A stretch of 14,008 nucleotides of DNA from Candidatus Bipolaricaulia bacterium (GTDB taxonomy: Bacteria > Bipolaricaulota > Bipolaricaulia > JBHIAT01): positions 1 to 14,008 of the forward strand of contig JBHIAT010000091.1 of the NCBI GenBank assembly GCA_046758705.1, in the 5' to 3' direction. Below are positions 1 to 14,008 of the stretch, in pieces. Within the stretch, counting starts at the first letter, position 1. Each line of letters begins with the position of its first letter. Below the pieces are notes generated by a model that saw nothing but the letters and a program-made list of their open reading frames with translations, ran no database searches and had not been told where the DNA came from. Both the position numbers and the translations under genes were made by a program.

Positions 1-79
1 TGGTGACAGAAGTATATCTCATCTTCTAGAAACACTCAACAGGGAGACCACCGAAAATTATATCCTCGATTTTTTAATT

Positions 80-108
80 AATATAAAGTATTTGCTCAGA
101 GGAGTCAA
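80..108 (-). promoter_or_regulatory. Leftward sigma70-type promoter (TTGACT-N17-TATATT) for a gene at or beyond the left edge
   Basis: Minus strand reads TTGACT (108-103), a 17-nt spacer, then TATATT (85-80), in an AT-rich intergenic region. Confidence 0.6.
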
Positions 109-132
109 GATCGGATTCAGGGTAGAGTTGGG

Positions 133-175
133 TGTAAGTCAACTTACAGATAAACGTCTCGTATTATACTATCTT
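133..175 (+). promoter_or_regulatory. CRP/FNR-family-like operator (TGTAAGTCAACTTACA) plus -10 box TATCTT; activator-dependent promoter of the redoxin-trxB operon
   Basis: Near-perfect 16-bp palindrome at 133-148. GTA-N8-TAC-N22-TAN3T spacing with -10 at 170-175. Same geometry at two other sites in the window. Confidence 0.75.
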
Positions 176-221
176 TAGAGTCAGGTCACTAAAACTTCTG
201 ATAGAGAGGAGGTGAGCCAGC

Positions 222-479
222 ATGGAAGAAGAGGTCAAGATCTACACAACACCGACATGCTCCTATTGCAAGCAGGCCAAAGCGTACATGGCGAAAAAGG
301 GCATCCAATATACCGAGTACGACGTGACGAAAGATCAGGAGGCATTGCAAGAGATGGTCCGGATTTCCGGTGCCCGTGCTGTACCGGTAATCGTAGTTTG
401 TGAACAAATCATGGTCGGCTTCGATCCGGCGAGATTCGATCAGATGCTCAACTGCATGCAGAATCGGACTGATCTGTAG
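222..479 (+). CDS. Glutaredoxin-like / NrdH-redoxin (YruB-type) protein
   Basis: VKIYTTPTCSYC (CxxC), cis-Pro motif AVPVIVV, C-terminal VGFD, 85 aa, strong RBS GGAGGTG, directly upstream of trxB. Confidence 0.9.
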   Translation: MEEEVKIYTTPTCSYCKQAKAYMAKKGIQYTEYDVTKDQEALQEMVRISGARAVPVIVVCEQIMVGFDPARFDQMLNCMQNRTDL

Positions 480-500
480 CAAAGAGCGAAGGAGAGCAAG

Positions 501-1436
501 ATGGAAAGAGAAAGATACGATATGATCATCATTGGGGCCGGGCCGGCGGGATTGACTGCCGGCCTCTACTGTGGCCGATCCCGACTTAAGACGTTGATTC
601 TGGAAGCTGTGATTCCCGGCGGTACACTGACCAAAACTGAAAAGATCGAAGACTATCCCGGCTTTGAGGAGATCACGGGCCAACAGTTGGCCGCCCGTAT
701 GGAGGGTCAAACGCGCAAATTCGGGGCCGAGATCAAGAGCGAGTCCGTGGTTAAAGTGCTCTGGGAAGCGAAAACCAAGCTCGTCAAGACGGAAGAAGCT
801 GAATACGAAGCTGGGGCGGTGATCATTGCCGCAGGAGGTTGGCCCAAGCAGCTAAACGTTCCCGGAGAACAAGAACTCACCGGCAGAGGCTGCTCCTACT
901 GCGCTCTATGCGATGGACCCTTCTTTCAGGATCAAGAGATCACCGTCATTGGTGGGGGCGATTCCGCTGTTGAAGAGGCGATCTTTCTGACGAAATATGC
1001 GAGCAAAGTCACGATCATCCACCGTCGCGACACGTTCAGGGCACAAAAAGCCATTCAAGAGAAGGCTTTTCAGAATCCCAAGATCGAAGTGCTTTGGAAC
1101 ACGGTCGTGGAAGAGATCCAGGGAGAAGATGGCGTCGAAGCTTTGGTGCTCAAGAACGTCCGGAGCGGGGAGCGAAAGAAGCTCGATGTGAAGGGTGTGT
1201 TCATCTTCATCGGGTTTGTACCCAACCAGGTCAAGGGGATGCACCCGAATCATGATAAGGGTGGATTTCTTGTGGCGGATGAGAGGATGGAGACGTCATG
1301 CCCCGGCATCTTCGCGGTGGGTGACATTCGATCACAGCCGGTGCGACAGATCACCAACGCCACTGGAGACGGGACGGTTGCCGCCGTGATGGCGGAGGAG
1401 TATTTGGAAGAACACAACTTACGGGTGAAATCCTAA
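501..1436 (+). CDS. trxB: Thioredoxin-disulfide reductase
   Basis: GAGPAGLTA FAD motif, GRGCSYCALCDG active site, GGGDSAVEEA and HRRDTFRA NADPH motifs, GIFAVGD; RBS AAGGAG. Confidence 0.95.
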   Translation: MERERYDMIIIGAGPAGLTAGLYCGRSRLKTLILEAVIPGGTLTKTEKIEDYPGFEEITGQQLAARMEGQTRKFGAEIKSESVVKVLWEAKTKLVKTEEAEYEAGAVIIAAGGWPKQLNVPGEQELTGRGCSYCALCDGPFFQDQEITVIGGGDSAVEEAIFLTKYASKVTIIHRRDTFRAQKAIQEKAFQNPKIEVLWNTVVEEIQGEDGVEALVLKNVRSGERKKLDVKGVFIFIGFVPNQVKGMHPNHDKGGFLVADERMETSCPGIFAVGDIRSQPVRQITNATGDGTVAAVMAEEYLEEHNLRVKS

Positions 1437-1514
1437 CCGCCTTGCACCGCCCCCCTCGCCCTCTTATAGGTTATAGGGAATCACACGAATCCAGGGTCGG
1501 TTTATCGGTCTCCT

Positions 1515-2732
1515 CTATCTCTTGAGCATCTTACGCATCATCAGCCTCGGTCCGCCAAGCCCCCAAAGATAGCGATAGCCGATCAGGTTCTTCAGTGTCC
1601 GCGCCGCCCAGCCGGAGAAGTGCAGTCCGAAGCCTCCCAGATTCAACACCCCTAAGGCATCCTTGTGTCCCAAGCTCAAGAACGTGCCCAACCGTTTGGG
1701 TCGGAACGGCTCGGGCGCCCGATCGGCCAGCTGGCGGGACAGGTTCCTCGCGGCCCAATACCCTTGTTGAAACGCGATCTGAGCCGTGGACGGCAACGGA
1801 CGACCTTGGTCATCGACGAATAACGAGCAGTCCCCAATGATGTAAACGTCCGGATGATCACGGGCTTGCAACAACTCGTTGACATAGGCCCGCCCTTGCC
1901 GATTGACCGCAAACCCGCTTTGCTCGACGAGGTGATGGCCACGCACGCCGCCGGCCCAAATGATCACTCCGGCCTCCAGTCGCTGGTCATTCCCCAGGAC
2001 CACACAGTGGGACTCCACGCGGCTGATGAGAGCCCCGGTGATCAACTCCACCCCTTTGCGCGTGAGGGTGTTGGTGGCCTGCTTGATCAGCAGCGGATCA
2101 AAGCCTGGGAGGATCGTTTCAGCTCCTTCCACCACGGTGATATGGATCTCTTTCGGGTCCAGGTCAAAGGTCTTAGCCAGGCGCGGTCGCCAGTCGACCA
2201 TCTCACCTGCCAACTCCACACCGGTGAACCCCCCACCCCCGATGAGGATATGGGTGCACCAGTGCTGATCGGGGTTTTCGTCATAGGCGACCATGGCCAG
2301 CTCGATGCGGCTGTGGATCAGGTGCGCGCTGCTGAGATCGTGCAGCACGAGCGCATGCTCCTGCAAGCCCTCGATCTCGTAGAACTGGGGTTCCCAGCCC
2401 AGTGCGATGATCAAGGCGTCGTAGGTGAGGGCCTTCGTCTCACCGCGTGTCTTCACCTCGACCTGGTGTGCTTGAGGATCGATGGTCTGAACGATGCCAC
2501 GCAGCACCCCGATCTGCGGGCTTAGCAACCTGGGCAGGTAGACCGAGACCTCTTCCAAGGCCGTATTCCAGATGGTCGGGTGATGCAAGAGCGTCGTCAG
2601 GTAATGGTAGTTGTGGTTGTTTACCAACGTGATTTGGGCTTTTCCTGAGGTCACGAGTCGACGCAGGCGGATGGCGGCGGTGACCCCGGCATAGCCGCCG
2701 CCGAGGATGAGGATCTGGGGTTTGTTCGCCAT
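1515..2732 (-). CDS. ndh: Type II NADH:quinone oxidoreductase (NDH-2 family FAD-dependent oxidoreductase)
   Basis: ILGGGYAG and IGGGGFTGVELAGE dinucleotide motifs, IWAGGV, YIIGD, AQIAFQQG (AQxAxQ quinone-site motif), basic amphipathic C-terminus. Confidence 0.88.
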   Translation of the reverse strand: MANKPQILILGGGYAGVTAAIRLRRLVTSGKAQITLVNNHNYHYLTTLLHHPTIWNTALEEVSVYLPRLLSPQIGVLRGIVQTIDPQAHQVEVKTRGETKALTYDALIIALGWEPQFYEIEGLQEHALVLHDLSSAHLIHSRIELAMVAYDENPDQHWCTHILIGGGGFTGVELAGEMVDWRPRLAKTFDLDPKEIHITVVEGAETILPGFDPLLIKQATNTLTRKGVELITGALISRVESHCVVLGNDQRLEAGVIIWAGGVRGHHLVEQSGFAVNRQGRAYVNELLQARDHPDVYIIGDCSLFVDDQGRPLPSTAQIAFQQGYWAARNLSRQLADRAPEPFRPKRLGTFLSLGHKDALGVLNLGGFGLHFSGWAARTLKNLIGYRYLWGLGGPRLMMRKMLKR

Positions 2733-2735
2733 GGT

Positions 2736-2855
2736 TCACGCCCTCTTATTTTCGCCTCTGGCTGCCTCATCAACGAACCACACGACCCGTCCTCTGGGGT
2801 GGACCCTGGCCACCGGGTAAAGATGGATCACCTGATCGAGCAAGTTCTTGACTCG
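2736..2855 (-). pseudogene. Probable C-terminal remnant of 6-phosphogluconolactonase (Pgl/DevB)
   Basis: Minus frame reads RVKNLLDQVIHLYPVARVHPRGRVVWFVDEAARGENKRA*. YPVARVHP..VVWFVDEAA resembles the Pgl C-terminus. The stop lies 3 nt before the ndh ATG and no Pgl-like N-terminal part is present. Confidence 0.6.
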
Positions 2856-2857
2856 AC

Positions 2858-3328
2858 TTAGACCCACGCTTCGTACAGCACACCGACCAGCAGACCGTAA
2901 ATCAAGTGGACCATGAGGAACCCCATCGCTGTCATGGCGGGATAGTTCTTGACGAAGACTCCAGGTGCCTGCATCTCACCACTGCGCATTAGCGGATGCA
3001 TCATCCCGATCATCCCCATGCCCATGCCCACCACCAGCCAGTGGCCGGCCCCGAAGAGGATCCCCCAACCGGCGAGGTTGGACTCCAGATCGAAGGCCTG
3101 GTAGAGGCCGGTGTGGATGAGAGCGAAGATGATGCCCATCATGGCGTGAATCATTGCCCCGACCATGTAGGCGGCTACTTTGCCTCGCACCATCATAGTG
3201 CCCAGCATGTACAGTATGTTCATGGTCATTTTCTGGGGCATCATAGCGATACCCATGTACATAATGACCGTCATCACCGCTGTCCCCACCAGCCCGGCTA
3301 AAACTGCTGCTCCAGCGTCGTAGGGCAT
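2858..3328 (-). CDS. Uncharacterised Met/His-rich ~4-TM membrane protein
   Basis: ATG at 3328 preceded by RBS AAGGAGGA. 156 aa with four hydrophobic segments, 25 Met and 5 His (MIHAMMG, LIH, GHW, MHP, VHLIYG). Confidence 0.85.
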   Translation of the reverse strand: MPYDAGAAVLAGLVGTAVMTVIMYMGIAMMPQKMTMNILYMLGTMMVRGKVAAYMVGAMIHAMMGIIFALIHTGLYQAFDLESNLAGWGILFGAGHWLVVGMGMGMIGMMHPLMRSGEMQAPGVFVKNYPAMTAMGFLMVHLIYGLLVGVLYEAWV

Positions 3329-3353
3329 CTTGTCCTCCTTTCTCTGTTGCTCT

Positions 3354-3396
3354 ACTGTATACGAGCTTTCATGGACAATCTGTAACACCGCTTACA
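3354..3396 (-). promoter_or_regulatory. CRP/FNR-family-like operator (TGTAAGCGGTGTTACA) plus -10 TACAGT upstream of the Met/His-rich gene
   Basis: Minus-strand TGTAA-N6-TTACA at 3396-3381. TAN3T box at 3359-3354 lies exactly 22 nt after TAC. Confidence 0.7.
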
Positions 3397-3451
3397 GTTT
3401 TTGTGGCCGTGCGTCTCGATAATGAGTTGTGTTCTCGTGATATGATTTGTA

Positions 3452-3481
3452 ATTATAAAATGTTGGGCTTAGAGAGGTCAG
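3452..3481 (-). promoter_or_regulatory. Leftward sigma70-type promoter (CTGACC-N18-TATAAT)
   Basis: Perfect TATAAT at 3457-3452 on the minus strand with a weak -35. The block resembles the leftward promoter at 80-108. Confidence 0.45.
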
Positions 3482-3583
3482 GATCGGGTCCGATAGACTA
3501 CAATTTAAGTGGTGAGGTGTGTTGGCGCTTCTGCCTGGTTGTATGAGCGCTGTTGCGTTTGTAGGCCACGAGAAGGAGCCGGA

Positions 3584-3626
3584 TGTAAGTTAACTTACAG
3601 ACAAACGTTTCGCACTGGGGTAGAAT
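3584..3626 (+). promoter_or_regulatory. CRP/FNR-family-like operator (perfect palindrome TGTAAGTTAACTTACA) plus -10 TAGAAT upstream of the three-paralog operon
   Basis: Perfect 16-bp palindrome at 3584-3599, -10 at 3621-3626 at the N22 spacing. 3584-3612 matches 133-161 at 26/29 nt. Confidence 0.8.
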
Positions 3627-3706
3627 CAAATCATAACGCGACAATGTTCTGAGAGAGGTGGTTTCAAAATGTGCACACTCAAGAGGTCGACAAGGGGGTG
3701 TTGGTG

Positions 3707-4090
3707 ATGGCGGAACGAGTAACTACACCAACACCGTGGGGTCTGCGACTGTTCCCGTTTCTGACCATGTCCGGCTGGATCCTGATCCTGATCGCGTTCA
3801 TCATCGGAGCCGCGATACTCGCTCCCTCCCACGCCGGATACTGGGGAGATCACTCCAAAGCGGATCGGGATGCAGCCGCCGCCGGTTCGGAGCTGCTTGG
3901 CGAACTGAACGAGATCAATACCTTCCCGCGCTGGGTTGCCCCCATGAAGTTCCTCGGGGTGGCGTCGTTCATGGTAGGGATTGCTCTTGAGTTCGCGACC
4001 ATTCCTAGGATCCTAAACAGACGAGGCGACGTGCTGAGCCGTGCGGTGCCGGTAATCGCTCGAGCAGGTGCGGATGCAAGGAGGAAGTAA
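3707..4090 (+). CDS. Uncharacterised 2-TM membrane protein, single copy of the W-x-x-P-x-K-F repeat (paralog A)
   Basis: ATG at 3707 after AAGGGGGTG. Hydrophobic segment, loop YWGDHSKADRDAAAAGSELL, then WVAPMKFLGVASFMVGIAL, which aligns with repeats in the next two genes. Confidence 0.8.
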   Translation: MAERVTTPTPWGLRLFPFLTMSGWILILIAFIIGAAILAPSHAGYWGDHSKADRDAAAAGSELLGELNEINTFPRWVAPMKFLGVASFMVGIALEFATIPRILNRRGDVLSRAVPVIARAGADARRK

Positions 4091-4093
4091 ACC

Positions 4094-4882
4094 ATGATGC
4101 AGAGCATGCTAGATGCGATGATGACGCGGTACCCGATGTTCATCGCCATGGGGTTCATGATCGTGATCGCCGCGCTGATCATCGGGGCCAACAACGCCGG
4201 CAACGCGTCCGAATATTATGCGTTCGATAAGGCGGTGCGGGATGCGGCGGGACGCGACTCGGAGCTGGCGCTTCTGAAAGTGGGTGTGGAGCGCATCGGA
4301 GTCTGGCTGCCTCCGTTCAAGTTTCTCGGGCTCGGGATGATCCTGGGAGGGATCACCATGGCGCTGGGAGTGATCATCAAGAATCTCGTCGGTGCCGGGG
4401 AGAAGGTGATGGCCGAGTTCCCGGAGGATCTCAGACTGCCGCCTCAGCCCAAGCCCCTCACCGCCCGGATGTTCCCGATGATTATGATGATGGGGATGGT
4501 CATCCTGTTCGTGGCCTTGTTCGTTTCACTGTGGCTTCAGGGGGTTGCGGCCGACTACTGGAACCACGCGATCGCCACGGAGCTTAACCCGGCGGCGAGC
4601 CGATCGGATTTGGCCGAGAAACTGGCGACGATCCAAGGGAACGAGGCGTGGCTGACGCCGTTCAAGTTCCTCGGGCTCGCCTTCCTGTTCACCGGGATCA
4701 CCCTAGCGCTGGTGACAATCATCCGGGCGTTGACGCTGCAGGGAGAGACGCTCGGTCGGGTCCTCCCCGAGATGCAGCAGCGTGCAACCGTAACCAAGAC
4801 CCAGAAGACCAAGGCCAGCAAGAAGCCTGAGGCCAAAACCGAGGTTGAGACGAAGGCGGAGAATCGGAAGGGAGGCGAGTGA
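4094..4882 (+). CDS. Uncharacterised Met-rich 4-TM membrane protein, two internal repeats and a Lys/Glu-rich tail (paralog B)
   Basis: RBS GGAGG. Motifs WLPPFKFLGLGMILGGITMAL and WLTPFKFLGLAFLFTGITLAL. Clear paralog of the next ORF. Confidence 0.88.
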   Translation: MMQSMLDAMMTRYPMFIAMGFMIVIAALIIGANNAGNASEYYAFDKAVRDAAGRDSELALLKVGVERIGVWLPPFKFLGLGMILGGITMALGVIIKNLVGAGEKVMAEFPEDLRLPPQPKPLTARMFPMIMMMGMVILFVALFVSLWLQGVAADYWNHAIATELNPAASRSDLAEKLATIQGNEAWLTPFKFLGLAFLFTGITLALVTIIRALTLQGETLGRVLPEMQQRATVTKTQKTKASKKPEAKTEVETKAENRKGGE

Positions 4883-4884
4883 TC

Positions 4885-5589
4885 ATGGAACAAACGAGGA
4901 TGGAACGGATGATGCAGCCGGTGATGCGGCGGTATTCGATGGTGATGATGATGGGGTTTCTGATCGTCCTGGCCTCGTTCATCATTGGAACCATCAACTC
5001 GTCGACCGCGGCTGAGTACTTTGCATTCTCCAAACAGGAGCGAGAGACAGCGACGGCCGGATCCGATCTGGTCAATCAGAAGGTCTTCGTAGAGCGAACG
5101 AAGGTCTGGTTGCCTCCGTTCAAGTTCGTGGGGCTGGGTATGATGCTCGGGGCGATCACCATGGCGCTTGGCACCATCGCCCAACGGCTGAGGACGATGG
5201 GTGAGACCGTGATGGGCACCTGGCCGGACCGTCTAAGGCCGGAGATGCCGCCCAAGCCGATGGCCGCAAAGATGTTCCCGATGATGATGATGATGGGGAT
5301 AGTGATCCTGTTCGTGGCCCTGTTCGTTTCGCTGTGGCTGCAAGGGGTCGCGGCCGACTACTGGAATCACGCGATCGCCACGCAGCTCAACCCGGCTCAG
5401 CCGGGGTCGGAACTGCTCAATCAGCTCGGGACCATCCAGTCGGTGAAGGCATGGTTGACCCCGTTCAAGTTTGTCGGGATGGGGTTCCTGTTCACCGGGA
5501 TCACCCTGGCACTGGTGACGATCATCGGTGCACTGCGCAAGCAGGAGGAGACGGTAGGAACGTTCATCTCGCAAGCGGAGTCGAGTTAG
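4885..5589 (+). CDS. Uncharacterised Met-rich 4-TM membrane protein, two internal repeats (paralog C)
   Basis: GGAGG 9 nt before ATG 4885 (alternative GTG at 4879 overlaps the previous stop). Motifs WLPPFKFVGLGMMLGAITMAL and WLTPFKFVGMGFLFTGITLAL; PMMMMMG run. Confidence 0.88.
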   Translation: MEQTRMERMMQPVMRRYSMVMMMGFLIVLASFIIGTINSSTAAEYFAFSKQERETATAGSDLVNQKVFVERTKVWLPPFKFVGLGMMLGAITMALGTIAQRLRTMGETVMGTWPDRLRPEMPPKPMAAKMFPMMMMMGIVILFVALFVSLWLQGVAADYWNHAIATQLNPAQPGSELLNQLGTIQSVKAWLTPFKFVGMGFLFTGITLALVTIIGALRKQEETVGTFISQAESS

Positions 5590-5618
5590 TTTAGTCGTCA
5601 GTTAGGTTAAAGCTATAG

Positions 5619-5655
5619 GGTGCTCAACCTCCCCGAGCGTGGGGGGTTGAGCACC
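5619..5655. terminator. Stem-loop between convergent genes, likely intrinsic terminator (possibly bidirectional)
   Basis: GGTGCTCAACC(TCCC)-cgagcgt-(GGGG)GGTTGAGCACC: 11-bp perfect outer stem extendable to 15 bp with one G-U pair, followed by TTTACTT on the + strand. Confidence 0.75.
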
Positions 5656-5660
5656 TTTAC

Positions 5661-7217
5661 TTAGTGCTTGTTCCCCAGACCCAGCAACTGCTTCCCCGCG
5701 TCACGCAACGCCTCCAGCGCCCGCGCCGCCGCTTCGGGACCTTGCTTTGAGGTGGCTTCGGTGTACAGTCGGGCGACCGGCTCGGTCCCCGAAAGTCGAA
5801 CCAACAACCAGCTCTTGTCTTCAAACAGGAACTTCCAGCCGTCCACGGCAATCGACCGGGCGACCGGCTTCCCGGCGATTTCCACCGTGCCTCCGGTTGC
5901 CACCTCCTCAACCAACCGATCGAACCGCTCTGGGATCTCATCTCGCAGCCGATCGGTCAACGGGATGTTGTCCCGATGATAAACATAATAACCGACCTGC
6001 TGCTGGATCTCATCCAGATGCTGTTTCAGCGATTTCCCGGTGCGGGCCACGATCTCGGCGGCCAGCACCCCGGCGAGGATTCCGTCCTTCTCCAGCACCC
6101 AATCCCGGATCGAAAGCCCGCCACTTTCCTCACCGGCCAGGATCACCGGGTGACCGCTCCCCGGTCTCAGGTGGTCGGTGAACCACTTGAACCCGACCGC
6201 CGTCTCGTAGATCGGGATGCCGAGCGATTCGGCAACCGCGTTGATCAGGTCGGTGGTCGCCACCGACTTGGCGGCACCGCCGCGATAGCCCCGCACCTCA
6301 TACAGATACCGGAGTGCGATCGCAATGAACTGGTTGGGCGTGATGTAACTTCCGTCGCGATCGACGATCCCGAACCGGTCGACGTCCGGATCTCCAGCGA
6401 TACCGAGCGCTTGACCTGAAGCACGTTTCACCCGATCGATCAACTCCCCGAGATGTGCCTCGGCCGGCTCGGGAGAGAGTCCCCTGAAGTCGGGATCGGG
6501 GGTCGCATGGAGGATATCCTCTTGGGATCCCCCGAGCGCTTCGAAAATCCACTGATAGGCACGGATTCCCGCGCCGTTCATCGGGTCGGCGATGAGCCGA
6601 AGGTCGGATCCCCGGATCGTGTCAAAGTCGATCACACGCTTGAGATCGTCGAGGTAGGCGGGCAATAAGTCGACTTCAGCAATCTTTCCGCTCCGGACTG
6701 CCGCCTCGTAATCCTGGTACAGGCGGATCTCAGGGTGTTTCCGCTTCATGTATCCGTTGGTGCGGCGCTCAATCTCATCGGTGATCGCCTTGCCCGCCGG
6801 GCCTCCGTGAGCCGGGTTGAACTTGATCCCGTTCCAGTTTCCCGGGTTGTGGCTGGCGGTGAGATTGATCCCGCCGACGGCCTGATGATGGGTGATCGCG
6901 TGAGAGATGACCGGGGTCGGTGTATAGGCTTTGCCGACAACCGGGTCGAGGCCGTGGGCGGCGAGGATGACGGCTGCCCGCTGGATGCCCTCCTCGCCGA
7001 GCGTCCGCGGGTCTCGCCCCAGGATAATGCTCCCGGTAAGGCCCTGATCATTGAGACAGTCGGCGATGGCTTGGACGACCAGGCCGATGTTCTCGGGCGT
7101 GAACGCCTCACCGATGACCGCCCGCCAGCCACTGGTTCCGAACGAGACATTTACCGGCTTCCAGTCTGTCTCCCGGCTCAACCTGAGCGTGATCGGTTCG
7201 TGATCCATCTCTGTCAT
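5661..7217 (-). CDS. pgm: Phosphoglucomutase/phosphomannomutase (alpha-D-phosphohexomutase)
   Basis: FGTSGWR, TASHNP phosphoserine loop, GDPDVDR metal loop, AGEESGG sugar loop, RLSGTEP; strong purine-rich RBS. Confidence 0.93.
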   Translation of the reverse strand: MTEMDHEPITLRLSRETDWKPVNVSFGTSGWRAVIGEAFTPENIGLVVQAIADCLNDQGLTGSIILGRDPRTLGEEGIQRAAVILAAHGLDPVVGKAYTPTPVISHAITHHQAVGGINLTASHNPGNWNGIKFNPAHGGPAGKAITDEIERRTNGYMKRKHPEIRLYQDYEAAVRSGKIAEVDLLPAYLDDLKRVIDFDTIRGSDLRLIADPMNGAGIRAYQWIFEALGGSQEDILHATPDPDFRGLSPEPAEAHLGELIDRVKRASGQALGIAGDPDVDRFGIVDRDGSYITPNQFIAIALRYLYEVRGYRGGAAKSVATTDLINAVAESLGIPIYETAVGFKWFTDHLRPGSGHPVILAGEESGGLSIRDWVLEKDGILAGVLAAEIVARTGKSLKQHLDEIQQQVGYYVYHRDNIPLTDRLRDEIPERFDRLVEEVATGGTVEIAGKPVARSIAVDGWKFLFEDKSWLLVRLSGTEPVARLYTEATSKQGPEAAARALEALRDAGKQLLGLGNKH

Positions 7218-7278
7218 TCCTCCTCCCCTCGAAAACTACCCTGATCAGACCTCAGTTGTCAACCATCACGATCCCCAG

Positions 7279-7307
7279 TTGCAAAAAGTTTGTTCTGCGG
7301 CTATATT
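7279..7307 (+). promoter_or_regulatory. sigma70-type promoter (TTGCAA-N17-TATATT) for the GH57 gene
   Basis: TTGCAA at 7279-7284, 17-nt spacer, TATATT at 7302-7307, in the divergent intergenic region. Confidence 0.6.
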
Positions 7308-7322
7308 GGCATCATTATAACC

Positions 7323-9509
7323 ATGTCCAGGCTTGACTTCATCTTCGGAATTCATTGCCATCAGCCCGTTGGCAACTTTGACTATGTGTTCGAGGCCGCC
7401 TATCAGGACGCTTATCTGCCGTTCATCGAGACACTGGAGCGCTACCCGGAGGTGAAGGTCACCCTCCACTACACCGGACCGCTCCTCGAGTACTTCGAGG
7501 CCGAACAACCGGAGTTCCTGGATCGGTTGGCGGCGCTGGTTGCTGCGGGGCAGGTCGAGATCCTGAGCGGTGGGTTCTACGAGCCGATCCTGTCGGTAAT
7601 TCCGGAGACAGACCGTCAAGGACAGATAGCCCTGCTGTCGGAGTATCTTGAGACGCGGTTCGATCAACCCCCGCAGGGGATGTGGCTGGCGGAGCGGGTC
7701 TGGGAGCCTCAGCTGCCGAGCACACTCACCCGCGCCAGGATCCGGTACCTGCCGATCGATGACTTCCACTTCAAGCGGGCGGGCCTTGAGGACGAGGAGC
7801 TGTTCGGTCATTACCTGACCGAGGATCTCAACCGGACCGTCTCGGTCTTCCCGATTAACGAGAAGCTCCGTTATATGATCCCGTTCCGCTTGGTTGAGAA
7901 GGTGATCGAGTTCCTCAAACAGATCCAGAAACACGGTGCCACGCTGGTGACCATGATCGATGACGGTGAGAAGTTCGGCGTCTGGCCAGGGACGAGGAAA
8001 TGGGTCTACGAGGAGGGCTGGCTCGACCTGTTTTTCAAAACGCTCACCGAGAACCGAGATTGGCTGCATACCTGTACCCTAGGAGAGGGCTATCGGGAGC
8101 ATGCGGCGCTCGGCCGGGTCTATCTGCCAACCACCGCCTACTTTGAGCTGACCGAGTGGGCGATGCCTGCTACCACCGGACGGGAGCTCGAGGATCTCCA
8201 GAAGCAGCTCGATGACCAACTTGAGACCTATCGACCGTTCCTGGCCGGGGGGTTTTGGAGGAATTTTCTGGCGAAGTACCCGGAGAGTAACCACATGCAC
8301 AAGCGGATGCTCCGCACCAGCCGGCGGCTCGCCGAACTCCAGGTGCAGGGCTACTCGGTCGCTGAGCTTGCCGAGGCCCATCGCGCGCTCTACCGGGCTC
8401 AAAGCAACGATCCCTACTGGCACGGGGTCTTCGGCGGGCTCTACCTCAGCCATCTCCGCGATGCTACCTATCGTCACCTCATCGAGGCGGATCGCGCCCT
8501 CGATCGGCTCACCCGTCAGGAGGAGCACTGGGTCGAAGCAAAAGCTGAGGACTGTGACGGCGATCTAAACGATGAGATCCTGGTCGACACCGACCAACTG
8601 TTCGCTATGTTCAAGCCCACTGATGGCGGCGTGCTCGTCGAGCTCGACGATAAGATCCAGGGGTTCAACCATCTCAACACCCTGACCCGACGGGAGGAGA
8701 TCTACCACCGTGAAATCATCGAGCGAGACCAGTCGACCGTCTCGGCCGCGGAGTCGGAAGGCGAAGGCGAAGGTGGATCAGAGGCAGCGAGCATTCACGA
8801 GATCGCCAAGGAGATCAACGCGTCCCTGGTGGAAGCGTTGATCTACGACCGATACCGGCGCAGCTCGGTTATCGACCATTTCCTTCCCGTCGATACCGAT
8901 CTGGAGGCGTTGATGAAGAACGACTACCGGGAGCTGGGTGATTTCACCATCGCCCCCTACCGCCACCGGATCATCAGCGACGCCGACGCCGATGCCACCT
9001 CAATCGAGCTCACCCGGGACGGTGGCGTCTCTGGCAGCTCGATCACGTTAAAGAAACGGGCTCGGTTCTATCCGAGGATGCGCGGTTTCGATTTGGACTG
9101 GGAGCTGGTGAACCGATCGGAGGCGACCCTGGAGGTGAAGTACGGTGTGGAGTTCAACTTCTCAATGCTGGCCGGGGATGCTCTGGATCGCTTCTACCTC
9201 ATCGACGGGGCCAAACCAGATAACGGGCGGTTCGCCAGCGTCGGCGCCTCGGAGGGGGTCGAGGAGGTCCGGTTGGTCAACGATTGGGATCGGTTTGCTA
9301 TTGTGCTCTGCCTGAACCGAACCGGAGGGCTGTGGCGGTTTCCGATCGAGACGGTGAGCAGCTCTGAGGCGGGATTCGAACGCGTTTATCAATCCTCGTG
9401 TCTGATCTTCCACTGGGACATTCATCTGGAACCGGGTGCCCGATGGGAGATGGGTATCCGTTATGAGATCGTCGCGCTCGATCCCGGTGAAGTGAATCAG
9501 ACAGGTTGA
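7323..9509 (+). CDS. GH57 4-alpha-glucanotransferase / alpha-amylase (AmyA-like, with C-terminal beta-sandwich region)
   Basis: HCHQPVGN, GGFYEPIL, GMWLAERVW (nucleophile Glu), DDGEKFGVWPGT (acid/base Asp), QSNDPYWHGVFGGLY, SEAGFERVYQ. Start placed at MSRLDF. Confidence 0.92.
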   Translation: MSRLDFIFGIHCHQPVGNFDYVFEAAYQDAYLPFIETLERYPEVKVTLHYTGPLLEYFEAEQPEFLDRLAALVAAGQVEILSGGFYEPILSVIPETDRQGQIALLSEYLETRFDQPPQGMWLAERVWEPQLPSTLTRARIRYLPIDDFHFKRAGLEDEELFGHYLTEDLNRTVSVFPINEKLRYMIPFRLVEKVIEFLKQIQKHGATLVTMIDDGEKFGVWPGTRKWVYEEGWLDLFFKTLTENRDWLHTCTLGEGYREHAALGRVYLPTTAYFELTEWAMPATTGRELEDLQKQLDDQLETYRPFLAGGFWRNFLAKYPESNHMHKRMLRTSRRLAELQVQGYSVAELAEAHRALYRAQSNDPYWHGVFGGLYLSHLRDATYRHLIEADRALDRLTRQEEHWVEAKAEDCDGDLNDEILVDTDQLFAMFKPTDGGVLVELDDKIQGFNHLNTLTRREEIYHREIIERDQSTVSAAESEGEGEGGSEAASIHEIAKEINASLVEALIYDRYRRSSVIDHFLPVDTDLEALMKNDYRELGDFTIAPYRHRIISDADADATSIELTRDGGVSGSSITLKKRARFYPRMRGFDLDWELVNRSEATLEVKYGVEFNFSMLAGDALDRFYLIDGAKPDNGRFASVGASEGVEEVRLVNDWDRFAIVLCLNRTGGLWRFPIETVSSSEAGFERVYQSSCLIFHWDIHLEPGARWEMGIRYEIVALDPGEVNQTG

Positions 9510-9534
9510 CAATCCTGACATTTGCTGCTAGTTT
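9506..9534 (+). promoter_or_regulatory. Internal sigma70 promoter TTGACA-N17-TAGTTT with extended -10 TG, for galT-like/glgA/branching enzyme
   Basis: Consensus -35 TTGACA (9506-9511, overlapping the GH57 stop), TGc at 9526-9528, TAGTTT at 9529-9534, RBS GGAGGAG downstream. Confidence 0.65.
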
Positions 9535-9581
9535 ACCTTAATTGGGAATAATAGAGAGTAAGAATACGGAGGAGCACCGAG

Positions 9582-10649
9582 ATGCCTGAGCTGAGACGGG
9601 ATCCAATCACCGACTGGTGGGTGATCATCGCCAAGGAACGGAGTAAACGTCCTTCTGATTTTGCTTCCCATGAGGAGCATCATCTGAACGAGGCCGAAAG
9701 CTGCGCGTTCTGCGAGGGGCACGGGGGTATGACCCCCAAGGAGATCTATGCGATCCGGGAGGACGGTTCGAAGCCGAACACCCCGGGTTGGCAGGTTCGG
9801 GTCGTGCCGAACAAATACCCGGCGCTCATCATCGAGGGGGACATGAACCGGACCGGAATCGGGATCCTCGATATGATGAACGGCGTCGGCGCCCATGAGG
9901 TGATCATTGAAACACCGTGCCACAACTGCGATCTGACCGACCTGTCGATCGACCACATCGTCAAAGTGCTGAAGACCTACAGCGTACGGATCAAAGATCT
10001 CCACGAGGACGATCGGTTCCGTTACGTGCTCGTCTTCCGAAACTACGGCCGCTCGGCAGGCGCGTCGCTTTCCCATCCACACTCCCAGTTGATCGCCACG
10101 CCGGTCACCCCCAACCTGATGCGGACCAAACTGAGGATCGCCCGAGACCATTACCATCAGAAGGAACGCTGTATCTACTGTGACATCATCCAACAGGAGC
10201 TGGAACGTGAGGAGCGGATCATCTCTGCCGATGAGCACTATGTGGTCTGGTCCCCATTCGCGGCGAGATTCCCGTTCGAAACGCACATCTACCCAAGGGA
10301 ACATTCCCACGATTTCACCGAGGATCAGGGTGAAAAACAGTATCATCTGGCTCGCACCCTCAAGGATATCCTGCTGCGCCTCCAAATCTCTCTCAACCAT
10401 CCCGGCTATAACTTCATGATCCATACCTCGCCGAATCTGACCCCCAGGCTGGGCAAGCCCGATTACTGGGGGACGATCGAACAGGATTTTCACTGGCATA
10501 TCGAGATCATCCCCCGGCTGACCCAGGTCGCCGGTTTTGAGTGGGGGACCGGCTTCTACATCAACCCGACCCCGCCCGAAGAGGTCGCAAACTACTTGCA
10601 GGAGATCGACACCTCGGAGCAGATCGAGGATGTGGTGGAAGAGGCATGA
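9582..10649 (+). CDS. galT: GalT-family (HIT superfamily) hexose-1-phosphate nucleotidyltransferase, glycogen-cluster-associated
   Basis: MPELRRDP..WVIIA.ERSKRP N-terminus, CAFCEG, VPNKYPAL, GAHEVIIE, GASLSHPHSQ (HxHxQ), CIYC, FHWHIEI.PRL...AGFEWGTG. Confidence 0.9.
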   Translation: MPELRRDPITDWWVIIAKERSKRPSDFASHEEHHLNEAESCAFCEGHGGMTPKEIYAIREDGSKPNTPGWQVRVVPNKYPALIIEGDMNRTGIGILDMMNGVGAHEVIIETPCHNCDLTDLSIDHIVKVLKTYSVRIKDLHEDDRFRYVLVFRNYGRSAGASLSHPHSQLIATPVTPNLMRTKLRIARDHYHQKERCIYCDIIQQELEREERIISADEHYVVWSPFAARFPFETHIYPREHSHDFTEDQGEKQYHLARTLKDILLRLQISLNHPGYNFMIHTSPNLTPRLGKPDYWGTIEQDFHWHIEIIPRLTQVAGFEWGTGFYINPTPPEEVANYLQEIDTSEQIEDVVEEA

Positions 10650-12169
10650 ATGGGGGAGAGTTAAACGTGTTGATGGTGGCCTCTGAGGGTGCCCCGTTCG
10701 CCAAGACCGGCGGATTGGCCGATGTCGTCGGGGCGCTGCCCGAGGCGCTCCACGCGCTAGGACATGACATCCGGGTGATGCTGCCGTATTACCGGATGGT
10801 GTCGACGAACCTTCGGGATCTGGGGCTCGAGCTGGAGAGGCAGGATGAGATTGAGGTCCCCATCGGGGGGAAACCGGTCCAGGGGACCATCTACCGGGGA
10901 ACCTTCCCCGACACGAGCATCCCAACCTACTTCGTTGCCGTCGACCGTTACTACGATCGCGATGAACTCTACGGGGAAGGCAAAGACAATTATCCGGACA
11001 ACCTGGAGCGGTTCGTCTTCCTGGATCGGGCAGCGCTGGGGTTGGTCGATCGACTCGATTGGGTCCCCGATGTGATCCATTGCCATGACTGGCAGACGGC
11101 CCTGATCCCCGTCTACCTGAAGACCCACTACCGAAATGATTCCCGGTGGTCACGGGTCGCCACCCTGTATACCATCCATAACCTCGCCTATCAAGGGACA
11201 TTCGATGCAACCGAGGCCAACGCGAGGATCATCGACCTCGATCCCGTTCCGGAGGCGCTGCTCATGACAATGAATTCCGAAATGGAGGAAAGGATCAATC
11301 TGATGGCCGGCGGGATCCGGTATGTGGACCTGCTGAACACGGTGAGCGAACGCTACAGTCGCGAGATCCAGACCAAGGAGTACGGAGCCGGTCTCCATGA
11401 GATGCTCGCCGGCCGGGCCGATGATCTGTACGGGGTGTTAAACGGCGTCGACTACGATATCTGGAACCCGGCAACCGATCCGCTCATCCCGACGCACTAC
11501 GATCGGGACCGCCTGGAGGGAAAACGGGAGAACAAAAGGCAGCTACAACGGGAGAACCGTCTCGTTGAGGATCCGGGGATTCCGCTCATCGGCGCGATCT
11601 CGCGTCTCGCGGGGCAGAAGGGATTCGACCTCGTCGTCGACGCCATCGATGAGATCGTCGACCTCGGAGCGCAGTTCGTGCTGCTCGGGACCGGGGATTC
11701 CAATCTGCACCGTGCCTTCGAGAAGATTGCCGATCGCCACGTCGGCGCTGTAGGGATCAATCTGGAGTACAACGAGCGCAAGGCCCATGAGATCGAGGCC
11801 GGTAGTGACATGTTCCTGATGCCCTCCCGCTACGAACCCTGTGGCTTAAACCAGATGTACAGCTTGAGGTACGGCACCGTCCCGATCGTACGGGCTACCG
11901 GTGGGCTGGACGACACGATCCAGAATTACGATCCGGCCACCGGCGTGGGAAATGGTTTCAAGTTCCATAAATACACCAAGGAGGCGTTGCTCGACGCGGT
12001 AAGGTGGGCTCTGGAGGTCTATCGGAGTCAGGAGCAGGAGACGTGGCGGAAGCTGATGATCCGTGGGATGGAGGCCGATCATTCGTGGTCGGCCTCGGCG
12101 GGACGCTACGTCGCGCTCTATGAACGGGCAATCGCCAAGCTGAAACAGGGAGAAGGAGTGCCAACATGA
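10646..12169 (+). CDS. glgA: Glycogen synthase (GT5)
   Basis: KTGGLADV, IHCHDWQ, TIHNLAYQG, SRLAGQKG, MPSRYEPCGLNQ, TGGLDDT. ATG at 10646 overlaps the galT stop (ATGA). Confidence 0.95.
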   Translation: MNGGELNVLMVASEGAPFAKTGGLADVVGALPEALHALGHDIRVMLPYYRMVSTNLRDLGLELERQDEIEVPIGGKPVQGTIYRGTFPDTSIPTYFVAVDRYYDRDELYGEGKDNYPDNLERFVFLDRAALGLVDRLDWVPDVIHCHDWQTALIPVYLKTHYRNDSRWSRVATLYTIHNLAYQGTFDATEANARIIDLDPVPEALLMTMNSEMEERINLMAGGIRYVDLLNTVSERYSREIQTKEYGAGLHEMLAGRADDLYGVLNGVDYDIWNPATDPLIPTHYDRDRLEGKRENKRQLQRENRLVEDPGIPLIGAISRLAGQKGFDLVVDAIDEIVDLGAQFVLLGTGDSNLHRAFEKIADRHVGAVGINLEYNERKAHEIEAGSDMFLMPSRYEPCGLNQMYSLRYGTVPIVRATGGLDDTIQNYDPATGVGNGFKFHKYTKEALLDAVRWALEVYRSQEQETWRKLMIRGMEADHSWSASAGRYVALYERAIAKLKQGEGVPT

Positions 12170-13887
12170 CCCACAATGAACGACCTAGCTTCACGATGGT
12201 TCTCCATTCCCATATCCCCTACGTCCTCAATCACGGCCGCTGGCCCCATGGGACCGATTGGCTGAACGAGGCGACTGCCGGGAGCTACATACCGTTGCTC
12301 AACGTGCTTAACCGGCTGGTCGATGAGGGGATCTCGCCGAAGCTCACCCTGGGGATCACCCCGGTCTTGGCCGAGCAGTTCGCCGATGCCGGATTCCGAA
12401 CTGAGTTCTCGAGTTATCTGCGGAATAAGATCGAGGTGGCGGAGGAGAACGCCCGGGAGTTTGAGCACAGCGGCATGGAGGAGATGAACGCGTTGGCCGA
12501 GTCGTGGCAGACCCATTTCACCGAGTTGCAGCATGCGTTCGAGGACCGGTACGGCGGTGATCTGGTGGGGGCGTTCAAAGCGCTCCAAGACGAAGGTCAT
12601 ATCGAGATCCTCACCTCAGCGGCGACTCATGGCTACTTTCCGCTTCTGAGCGAGGATGTGAGCATCGATGCCCAGATCAAATGCGGCGTTTCAGCTTACC
12701 AAAGGCATTTCGGACGCGCCCCGCGGGGGCTCTGGCCGCCGGAGCTTGCCTACCGTCCAGAGTACGAATGGACCCCACCAGTGAGCCATCCGAAGCGGAA
12801 GGGAAGCTATCCGAGGAAAGGCGTGGAGCGTCTGCTCTCGGAGAACCGGATCGAGTACTTCCTCATTGACACCCCGCTGCTCAAGGGGGGCAAGTCCATC
12901 GGCGTCTACCTCGCTCGGTTCAAAGCGCTCCAGCAACTGTGGGAGCAGTTCGAAGCGCAGTACCAACCTCGCGAGCAGATTGAGAAGTCCCCTTATCGAC
13001 CGTATCTCGTCGGCGGAGGTGCGGAGATCACCCCGGTGGCGATCTTCACCCGGGATTCGGAGATCGGGCTCCAGGTGTGGAGTGGCGAGTGGGGCTATCC
13101 CGGGGACGCGTGGTACCTGGATTTCCACAAGAAGCACTTCCCCGGCGGTCACCGCTACTGGCGGGTGATCAGCAGTAAGGCCGACTTGGCGGACAAGGAA
13201 ATCTACAACCCCCAGATGGCCCGGGAGCGCGTCGTGGAGAATGCTTCCCACTTCGTCCATCTGGCGGCAGAGATCCTGAACCAGCGTGGACCCCAAGACG
13301 AACCCGGCATCCTGGTGGCCCCGTTTGACACCGAGCTGTTCGGCCACTGGTGGTTTGAAGGGGTGGAGTTTCTCTATCTGGTTCTGAAGCAACTGGGAGA
13401 GCGGGAGGAGGTCACGCTCGTCACCTGTGGTGAGTACCTGGATCGCTACCCACCGAACGAAATCGTTGCGCTGCCCGAGGGTTCCTGGGGTGAGGGTGGG
13501 TTCCACTGGATCTGGTTGAACGAATGGACCGAGTGGACTTGGGAACGGATCTACGACGCCGAGGTCGAGATGATTGATCTGGCCGGGGAGTACGCGGGGA
13601 TCCCCGACGGAACGCTTCAGGAGATCCTGAAGCAGGCTGGCAGGGAGCTGTTACTCCTCCAGGCTTCCGATTGGCAGTTCCTGATCTCGACCTGGAGCGC
13701 TCGGGATTACGCCGAGATGCGCTTCTCCAGGCACTACGAGGATTTCGAACGTCTGGCCCGGATGGCACGAACCTATCAGGAAACCGGGAATCTCGACGCG
13801 GGGGACCGAGGTTTTCTAGAGGAGTGCATGGACCGGGACCGAGTGTTCTCAGACGTCAATCCCGCCTGGTGGGCCCCGGACGAGTAG
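12166..13887 (+). CDS. GH57 1,4-alpha-glucan branching enzyme
   Basis: LHSHIPYV, ATHGYFPL, GLWPPE (nucleophile), APFDTELFGHWWFEG (acid/base), QASDWQF. ATGA overlap with glgA. Confidence 0.92.
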   Translation: MTHNERPSFTMVLHSHIPYVLNHGRWPHGTDWLNEATAGSYIPLLNVLNRLVDEGISPKLTLGITPVLAEQFADAGFRTEFSSYLRNKIEVAEENAREFEHSGMEEMNALAESWQTHFTELQHAFEDRYGGDLVGAFKALQDEGHIEILTSAATHGYFPLLSEDVSIDAQIKCGVSAYQRHFGRAPRGLWPPELAYRPEYEWTPPVSHPKRKGSYPRKGVERLLSENRIEYFLIDTPLLKGGKSIGVYLARFKALQQLWEQFEAQYQPREQIEKSPYRPYLVGGGAEITPVAIFTRDSEIGLQVWSGEWGYPGDAWYLDFHKKHFPGGHRYWRVISSKADLADKEIYNPQMARERVVENASHFVHLAAEILNQRGPQDEPGILVAPFDTELFGHWWFEGVEFLYLVLKQLGEREEVTLVTCGEYLDRYPPNEIVALPEGSWGEGGFHWIWLNEWTEWTWERIYDAEVEMIDLAGEYAGIPDGTLQEILKQAGRELLLLQASDWQFLISTWSARDYAEMRFSRHYEDFERLARMARTYQETGNLDAGDRGFLEECMDRDRVFSDVNPAWWAPDE

Positions 13888-13905
13888 AGAGGTCTGGGAA
13901 TCGGG

Positions 13906-14007
13906 TCACTGTTTCTGATGCTGAAGCACCTCTTCCAGAGAAGTGATGCCGCCGATGACCTTGCGCAGGCCATCCTCGATGAAGGGGGTCATCCCACCGT
14001 TGATCGC
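13906..14007 (-). CDS. 3' end (partial) of a GspE/PilB-family secretion/pilus ATPase
   Basis: Minus frame AINGGMTPFIEDGLRKVIGGITSLEEVLQHQKQ* matches the characteristic GM....DGL.KV..G.TSLEEV C-terminus; truncated by the window edge. Confidence 0.8.
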   Translation of the reverse strand, partial: AINGGMTPFIEDGLRKVIGGITSLEEVLQHQKQ

Positions 14008-14008
14008 T

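Follow-up and report, generated by a model that had tools for sequence, protein, structure and literature searches.

A candidate five-hairpin membrane assembly with predicted stress-linked expression, split over three genes in bacteria and fused into one chain in archaea

The large-conductance mechanosensitive channel MscL is a homopentamer of two-helix subunits, and the FliP/FliQ/FliR (SctR/S/T) export gate is put together from homologous helical hairpins that occur in differing numbers per chain; among proteins that handle copper, CTR and CusF carry Met-rich 'Mets' motifs. Here we describe a three-gene module, A, B and C, that recalls each of these systems in part. It lies in a stretch of 14,008 nucleotides (nt) assigned to a Candidatus Bipolaricaulia bacterium (contig JBHIAT010000091.1 of assembly GCA_046758705.1, positions 1 to 14,008; hereafter the window), and its products contain five copies of one two-helix unit. 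By sequence criteria they appear to belong to an undescribed, rare, membrane-embedded family. We favour, at a probability of about 0.5, the reading that they would form a five-hairpin A1B1C1 membrane assembly, inducible and serving in thiol/oxidant or soft-metal stress. The three genes are as follows.

3707-4090, plus strand: gene A (open reading frame (ORF) 3671/3707-4090), 127 amino acids (aa) from ATG 3707, one two-helix unit.
4094-4882, plus strand: gene B, 262 aa, two units, B1 at 4094-4438 and B2 at 4439-4783.
4879-5589, plus strand: gene C, 236 aa from GTG or 234 aa from ATG 4885, two units, C1 at 4897-5241 and C2 at 5242-5586.

Gene A starts 8 nt downstream of a Shine-Dalgarno sequence, AAGGGGG; 3 nt separate it from B, the start of C overlaps the stop of B by 4 nt, and the three genes are translationally coupled. 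The initial annotation had read them as one, two and two copies of a single two-helix unit, and this description stands: BLASTP among the five units (~115 aa each) matches all 10 pairs, with expect values (E) from 6.8e-10 to 3.7e-48 and identities of 29-71%, and hydropathy gives two membrane helices in A and four each in B and C, with a Lys/Glu/Thr-rich tail following the two units of B. A further claim, that a Lys-bearing W-P-K-F motif is common to all copies, holds within the window, where W-x-x-P-x-K-F occurs in every unit (A76, B71, B186, C77, C192), but does not extend to the family: of 101 aligned units, 68 have K at the Lys position, 13 have R and 10 have T, and only 4 of 24 A-type orthologues have the Lys (alignment read by eye).

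The family had not been recognised at the outset, and the databases agree: Pfam and NCBIfam scans of A, B and C gave no match above, or even near, any cut-off, PADLOC models of anti-phage defence systems matched 0 families for A, B, C, a DUF6789-like neighbour, an archaeal fused form (both described below) and the fused form's neighbour, and Rfam yielded 0 matches at gathering thresholds. Searched against PDB sequences, the 101-unit profile had a sole match at E<0.1 (8.8e-8), covering 32 residues of a designed coiled coil, that we dismissed as a composition artefact and not a relative of the unit; profiles of the fused family and of the DUF6789 neighbours found none there. The close structural neighbours of an Atlas model of B (pTM, the predicted template-modelling score, 0.72) are all unnamed Chloroflexota clusters, the named rows reaching template-modelling (TM) scores of 0.36-0.43 by query and a PX-domain row 0.51; the fused form has no Atlas model. 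Literature searches on pseudo-pentameric and transmembrane-hairpin proteins, within a limited collection, returned nothing relevant.

The argument for a single assembly comes from the number of units that are kept together. Our comparative set comprised 75 bacterial loci from species genomes, nearly all titled Chloroflexota, in which units were counted in stop-to-stop frames and a cluster was taken as complete when clear of contig ends (n=66); gene calls in the fetched loci are greedy ORF calls and many loci come from related genomes, so that the counts overstate independence, which lessens what they can contribute. Five units are found in 40 complete clusters, in the order 1-2-2 or 2-1-2, and three, in the order 1-2, in 21; four visibly decayed clusters hold two units and one cluster holds one, while none has four or more than five. 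Whole-genome totals are three units in genomes G184, G186 and G187, five in G188 and in the window's own genome, and ten in G185, whose units constitute an inverted duplicate of one locus. In L009, a locus of the three-unit type, the tree indicates that the two-unit gene was duplicated independently to reach five units. Counted by protein, the 150 best representatives have one unit (101), two (32), three (2) or five (4) or are fragments (11), with none at four or six. At locus L033, identical 2-1-2 modules stand inverted at 1307-3182 (minus strand) and 7001-8876 (plus strand) around inverted CcdA/TlpA pairs, which is either a real inverted duplication or an artefact of palindromic assembly. 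A three-unit ORF that combines A with the two-unit gene was seen in L040 (7641-8855) and in protein P0121.

The same number recurs in single archaeal chains. A search with one fused form gave 24 proteins of ~585 aa, with five units in 22 of the 22 examined, and profile-profile comparison of the unit with this fused family gives 97.2% (E 4e-11). The neighbours of the fused genes are archaeal (ribosomal protein S6e, aIF2-gamma, an eRF1-domain protein, PAC2), and the fused form occurs in 0 of 401 sampled Chloroflexota genomes. When each fused unit is scored against the bacterial unit classes, in which X and Y are two old two-unit paralogues that Anaerolineae keep, unit 1 is of first-unit type (X1/Y1) in 21 of 22 chains, unit 2 of second-unit type (X2/D2) in all 22, and unit 5 best scored as A-type in all 22, with ambiguous scores for units 3 and 4; the archaeal chain therefore reads 2+2+1. 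One 777-aa five-unit protein, P0283, is joined to a PAC2 domain and may result from reading through into the adjacent gene that is seen in L087. As fusions of the Rosetta-stone kind, the five-unit chains combine with the cluster counts to support, without proving, five hairpins in one closed assembly, as the initial annotation had proposed. That annotation had also held that variable repeat totals among homologous loci would speak against such a complex, and here the outcome is mixed: totals are mostly five, with four and more than five absent, but 21 of the 66 complete clusters and three genomes have three. Taking these repeat counts together, we think it somewhat probable that the five hairpins belong to one assembly.

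The window's module has a clear place in this family. Gene A is 44-53% identical to the A of five-unit loci versus 28-36% to the A of three-unit loci; B1 scores best against class X1 (147 bits, with Y1 at 115 bits), C is Y-type by class profiles, with C2 best against the Y2/D2 classes, and the order A-X-Y is shared with nine Anaerolineae loci. A quick tree nevertheless makes the window's B and C sisters, with a support of 93 in the Shimodaira-Hasegawa-like approximate likelihood ratio test (SH-aLRT), because of one nearly identical stretch of DNA.

4466-4560, plus strand: patch of gene B ~90% identical in DNA to C, against 50-70% elsewhere.

This patch is probably a gene-conversion tract. A private duplication that gave rise to the window's B and C was considered and rejected, since B1 is X-type, C is Y-type, A is of the five-unit type and the order is A-X-Y; from these comparisons the module is best read as a 1-2-2-type orthologue carrying a gene-conversion patch.

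From charge counts over the alignments, the N-terminus and the linkers that join units are predicted to lie inside, with a net charge of about +2 to +3, and the ~40-aa loops within units outside, at about 0 to -2, a pattern that suggests an N-in/C-in hairpin. In the 101-unit alignment, helix 1 has a Gly in 95 units, with small residues 7 and 11 positions after it, and the outer loop is conserved as Y-[FW], K-A-x-R-[DE]-A-A and G-S-x-L-L. The W of W-L-x-P-F-K-F-L-G is present in 97 units and the next G in 99, and helix 2 contains an invariant Ile (101/101). Methionine is concentrated in alignment columns 9-29, which cover the beginning of helix 1 and its cytoplasmic flank, with the motif F-P-M-x-M-M-M-G.

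The Met richness of B and C reported initially (18/262 and 23/234) is exact; counted from the GTG start, C has 24/236 (10.2%), compared with 6.9% in B and 4/127 residues in A. Among the genome's 3,258 ORFs of at least 100 aa, for which the median is 2.1% and the 99th percentile 5.3%, the DUF6789-like protein ranks first in Met content, C second and B eighth. Bacterial two-unit proteins have Met medians of 5-7% in all six unit classes, and the DUF6789 neighbours have 9-16%. Met-rich domains have been described as recruiters of copper, and CueO as standing out in Met content among E. coli proteins (PMC11494321).

Upstream of the module, and again before a thiol-redox operon at the start of the window, stand two copies of a putative operator.

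133-148: second operator copy, 1 mismatch, 74 nt upstream of the glutaredoxin-like gene.
222-479, plus strand: glutaredoxin-like CxxC protein, 85 aa (PF00462, E 3.6e-19), first gene of its operon.
501-1436, plus strand: thioredoxin-disulfide reductase TrxB (TIGR01292, 371.8 bits, above the equivalog cut-off of 343.45).
3584-3599: perfect palindrome TGTAAGTTAACTTACA (TGTA-N8-TACA), 108 nt upstream of A.
3598-3626, plus strand: promoter-like CAGACA-17-TAGAAT.

CRP-family (NtcA-type) sites have the form TGTA-N8-TACA, and class II placement is ~41.5 nt upstream of the start. Both window sites have this sequence form, and if transcription begins where the TAGAAT box predicts, the palindrome before A would be centred ~41-42 nt upstream of that point. 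Over a 40-nt consensus the two sites share 30 of 30 specified positions, the likeness of the 3584-3599 region to the 133-148 site continuing to about 3613, whereas the next-best site in the genome, before a FolE-like reading frame (translation read by eye), agrees at 23 of 30. At up to 2 mismatches the genome holds 4 sites and a reversed control 0, the two best preceding A and the glutaredoxin-trxB genes. Further TGTAAG-N4-CTTACA copies in the window's genome lie at C136:6469-6484, C199:2377-2392 and C24:1347-1386: one copy sits between GTP cyclohydrolase I and an MBL/LysM gene, one between two small unknown genes and 1.6 kb from a Crp-family gene (one of 17 Crp-family matches in the genome), and a weaker extended match precedes a second FolE-like frame. 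The Crp-family gene at C199:111-758 is a candidate for the cognate regulator. Such copies of the operator may mark out a small regulon in which pterin synthesis and thiol-redox genes are linked.

The exact palindrome was found in none of the loci fetched from other genomes. A related element, TGTATGCAAGAC[CT]AC[AC]GAAC, precedes the first module gene by 84-362 nt in L010, L017, L018, L020, L029, L036 and L064; in the form TGTA-N8-yAC it is present in 9 of 10 upstream regions examined, these seven relatives included, against an estimated chance expectation of about 0.02 per region. Loci L017, L018, L029 and L036 each have a Crp/Fnr-family gene divergent from the module and L064 has a truncated one, and a Thioredoxin_3 CxxC protein adjoins the module in L017 and L018. 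Of the 75 bacterial loci, 26 carry at least one of extracytoplasmic function (ECF) sigma, anti-sigma, DoxX, TlpA/ResA-like and CcdA/DsbD genes (tally by eye), with ECF sigma factors at 17 loci, small anti-sigma factors at 16, DoxX at 16, TlpA/ResA-like at 9, CcdA/DsbD at 7 and DUF3179 at 8. The small soluble anti-sigma factors have the motif C...H-x3-C-x2-C, and upstream ECF/anti-sigma genes are typical of Anaerolineales loci; some 1-2-2 loci have OmpR-type regulators nearby. DUF3179 is tabulated as a UxxC selenoprotein family in a review (PMC9312934). The archaeal fused locus L087 has CcdA-like and DUF3179-like genes on the same contig, as around bacterial modules. The thread common to these neighbourhoods appears to be signal-dependent expression with a thiol-redox or envelope-stress flavour.

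Between the thiol-redox operon and the module lie two genes on the opposite strand.

1515-2732, minus strand: FAD (flavin adenine dinucleotide)-dependent pyridine nucleotide-disulfide oxidoreductase, 405 aa, family-level matches only.
2858-3328, minus strand: DUF6789-like four-helix membrane protein, 156 aa from ATG 3328, in an ORF extending to GTG 3388.

The DUF6789-like gene is divergent from A, and its product has four invariant His and is the most Met-rich of the genome (~14.8-16%). Its own match to PF20587 (18.2 bits, E 0.0029) is under the 27.1-bit Pfam cut-off, and a whole-genome scan with PF20587 did not report it. Its family nonetheless aligns by hhalign with the archaeal DUF6789 neighbours at 96.3% (E 1.6e-9, 134 columns); those neighbours score 43.8-53.1 bits on PF20587 and lie divergently upstream of the fused genes, and PF20587 also matches 3 of 6 bacterial members of the neighbour family (best E 3.4e-9). 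The two halves of the DUF6789-like protein are homologous to each other (hhalign 91.6%, E 8e-7), each with an H-L-I-Y-G helix, and the protein is unrelated to the hairpin unit (hhalign 0.5%). Such a gene lies less than 500 nt from the module in the window and in seven bacterial loci, and likewise at 7 of the 14 archaeal fused loci; in the three-unit loci L010, L017, L020, L029 and L036 it opens a same-strand string that continues with A and B. Searches of the available literature collection gave no relevant paper on DUF6789. The oxidoreductase, on the same strand and 125 nt downstream of the DUF6789-like gene, may be co-transcribed with it.

The family is sparsely distributed. Relatives of B number 259 at E up to 1e-3, all of them unnamed or 'hypothetical', and those with organism names are from Chloroflexota (Anaerolineae, Dehalococcoidia, Promineifilaceae); of 1.84 billion cluster representatives, 462 match the unit profile, and the hosts are uncultivated. 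Sampling 401 Chloroflexota genomes turned up the module in 4, and among 184 genomes from the window's own phylum the window's genome is the only one to carry it. In six of eight orthologue pairs the ratio of nonsynonymous to synonymous substitution (dN/dS) is 0.10-0.14, the other two being saturated at synonymous sites, which indicates working genes under purifying selection. Split-type modules on contigs labelled Heimdallarchaeota and Patescibacteria (L058 and L025) nest among Chloroflexota in the tree, and those bins may contain foreign contigs.

The same question of origin arises for the window, where a complete glycogen gene set (5661-13887) follows the module.

5661-7217, minus strand: phosphoglucomutase (PGM).
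7290-9509: GH57 amylase/4-alpha-glucanotransferase.
9582-10649: GalT-like uridylyltransferase.
ORF from 10541: GlgA, with a Pfam match from residue 42, overlapping the GalT ORF as called.
12166-13887: GH57 branching enzyme.

The flanking PGM scores 271-298 bits against Chloroflexota versus 242 bits or less against the window's own phylum, and the top named match of GlgA is 'Candidatus Acetothermia', at 54% identity. These affinities suggest that the module was horizontally acquired or that the contig was mis-binned. Contamination of the genome bin is 4.69%. At 3.7 Mb the genome itself is roughly twice as large as the listed genomes of its phylum (1.1-2.3 Mb among those shown), and a second PGM, on contig C8, resembles the phylum's own copy. 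The sequencing runs listed as containing this DNA are three from one study labelled hydrothermal vent metagenome, possibly its source, and no RNA run was listed.

Our favoured explanation would make A, B and C the subunits of one ten-helix integral-membrane body, A1B1C1, composed of five homologous N-in/C-in hairpins, which Chloroflexota-type bacteria would encode in split form (1+2+2, 2+1+2 or 1+2) and archaea as one chain of ~585 aa; three-unit loci would then supply an A1B2 stoichiometry. The module would be an inducible accessory and not a housekeeping system, driven here from a promoter with the predicted CRP/NtcA-type operator, which is repeated before the glutaredoxin-thioredoxin reductase operon, and the assembly would be paired with the very Met-rich DUF6789-type four-helix protein. 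Met belts where the first helices end on the cytoplasmic side might, with this Met/His-rich partner, bind or conduct soft species or absorb oxidant. What is inferred here from genes and their contexts extends from subunit binding and the A1B2 stoichiometry to topology, the regulator and all of the biochemical role. An inducible stress role of the thiol/oxidant or thiophilic-metal kind, often alongside DUF6789, is a tentative proposal, less secure than the common assembly of the hairpins. More doubtful still is the most specific version, in which an ancient closed ring or bundle of exactly five non-identical hairpins and a pseudo-dimeric DUF6789 would act as a redox- or soft-metal-gated conduit, controlled by Crp, ECF/zinc-anti-sigma or two-component systems according to lineage.

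A number of observations weigh against this explanation. On the structural side, the 21 three-unit loci and genomes G184, G186 and G187 fit a pentamer only as A1B2, the single chain P0264 has three units in a composition differing from that of L040 and P0121, and the unit alignments contain no invariant charged residue within the helices. On the chemical side, A, B and C have zero Cys (sequences read by eye), the outer loop is essentially Met-free and the Met columns fall on the side predicted to be cytoplasmic, and copper sites of Met and His usually lie outside the cytoplasm; the neighbours scanned included no copper gene (CopA, CopZ, CsoR, CusF, CopC/D). With Met predicted to face inward and no copper gene nearby, the copper reading, which the initial annotation had offered as Cu(I)/Ag(I) handling beside oxidant scavenging, is weakened. 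Neither A-type units (Met median 2.5%) nor the archaeal fused proteins (median 2.6%, range 1.6-3.4%) are Met-rich, so that Met would be inessential to the core function, and its enrichment looks like a lineage trait added onto the fold and not its essence. As to regulation and partners, a crude ungapped comparison at 17 loci revealed no promoter motif common to the ECF sigma genes and the module, which leaves adjacency as the argument for ECF control; module neighbourhoods are otherwise diverse; and a DUF6789-type gene is present in only one of five module-bearing genomes searched, so that its association appears facultative. As an obligate partner, DUF6789 was accordingly rejected.

The variable totals could also mean that there is no closed five-unit complex at all: A might join one two-unit protein into a six-helix body, or the units might form an open-ended array, with C a partly redundant paralogue of B. 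The 21 three-unit clusters among the 66 complete ones, the three genomes with only three units and the three-unit chain P0264 favour this account, as does the ~90% identical patch of B and C, a sign of ongoing exchange between the two. It is harder to reconcile with the archaeal five-unit single chains or with the retention of both X and Y in 40 clusters under purifying selection, and an open array would allow four, six or seven units, which we saw in no cluster or protein; we regard this account as possible, though the less expected outcome. The main functional rival accepts the pentamer and changes its job. As an MscL-like valve, the module would be a pseudo-pentameric tension-gated channel that releases solutes, its Met-rich N-terminal stretches lying as helices on the membrane surface. 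Unit size and the predicted N-in/C-in two-helix topology suit a channel hairpin, as do the conserved small-residue faces of helix 1 (G 95/101) and helix 2 (G 99/101, G/A 98/101). Sugar-active enzymes lie in the vicinity of several modules, with GH15 trehalase/glucoamylase-like genes near L025, L030 and five archaeal loci, GH63/MGH-like genes near L012 and L028, and PGM, GH57, GlgA and the branching enzyme in the window itself. Such neighbours are few, however, and the archaeal ones come from related contigs; no Pfam family, MscL (PF01741) included, matches at E up to 1, and there is no match to PDB sequences; and dedicated redox-type regulation would be unexpected for a constitutive safety valve. 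We consider a valve of this kind unlikely.

The neighbouring protein suggests another arrangement, by analogy with MotA5B2, ExbB5D2 and GldL5M2, whose 5:2 architectures would be matched by a pseudo-pentamer around the internally duplicated, pseudo-dimeric DUF6789 protein. There are five hairpins, the halves of DUF6789 are homologous, with an H-L-I-Y-G helix in each, and module and DUF6789 genes adjoin in both bacteria and archaea. Yet the partner would contribute four helices and not two, without a soluble domain to drive; no Asp or Glu is found among the invariant columns of the DUF6789-like alignment; the gene is absent from four of the five module genomes searched; neither PADLOC, its Zorya models included, nor Pfam gives a match to stator families; and serially fused chains or non-identical subunits would be ill-suited to rotation. 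A 5:2-type machine is thus very improbable, and we return to the A1B1C1 assembly with a predicted stress role as the explanation that we favour.

If five hairpins do close into one ten-helix body, the module would provide a rare pseudo-five-fold membrane protein whose evolution can be read from genomes, from a 1+2 locus through a 1+2+2 locus after duplication to a single archaeal fused chain. It would also give DUF6789, a widespread family without an assigned function, its first recurring partner, and the tie of both families to thiol-redox regulation would make them amenable to ordinary stress assays. The claim is limited in that the family is rare, its hosts are uncultivated and its biochemical role is inferred only.

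Among known systems, DUF6789 itself (PF20587; more distantly DUF1440/YagU and DUF2938) resembles the four-helix, Met-rich, small protein at 2858-3328, although the window copy falls below the Pfam cut-off and the comparison concerns the neighbour and not A, B or C. The copper-related Met-rich proteins CueO, CTR and CusF share with the module a proteome-extreme Met content, M-x-x-M-type runs and a stress context, and a Caulobacter operon for copper stress likewise comes with DoxX and ECF sigma factors (PMC11626156); the module differs in that its Met runs are predicted to point toward the cytoplasm or inner leaflet and that its Met richness is lost in the archaeal form. The FliP/FliQ/FliR gate offers a parallel in gene architecture, with paralogues that carry one, two or more hairpin copies, occasional fusions and an assembly of fixed composition, but it has no sequence similarity to the module, and a different stoichiometry, and no secretion-system genes lie near the module. 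MscL is alike in build: a unit of ~115-130 aa, predicted N-in/C-in, with two helices, an outer loop and small-residue faces, five such units giving ten helices if assembled together. By contrast with MscL, to which no sequence relationship was detected, the module's units are non-identical and spread over three genes or joined in one chain, its outer loop of ~40 aa bears Y-[FW]...K-A-x-R-[DE]-A-A..G-S..L and W-L-x-P-F-K-F-L-G, its expression is predicted to be regulated and stress-linked, and its pentameric ring geometry is hypothetical.

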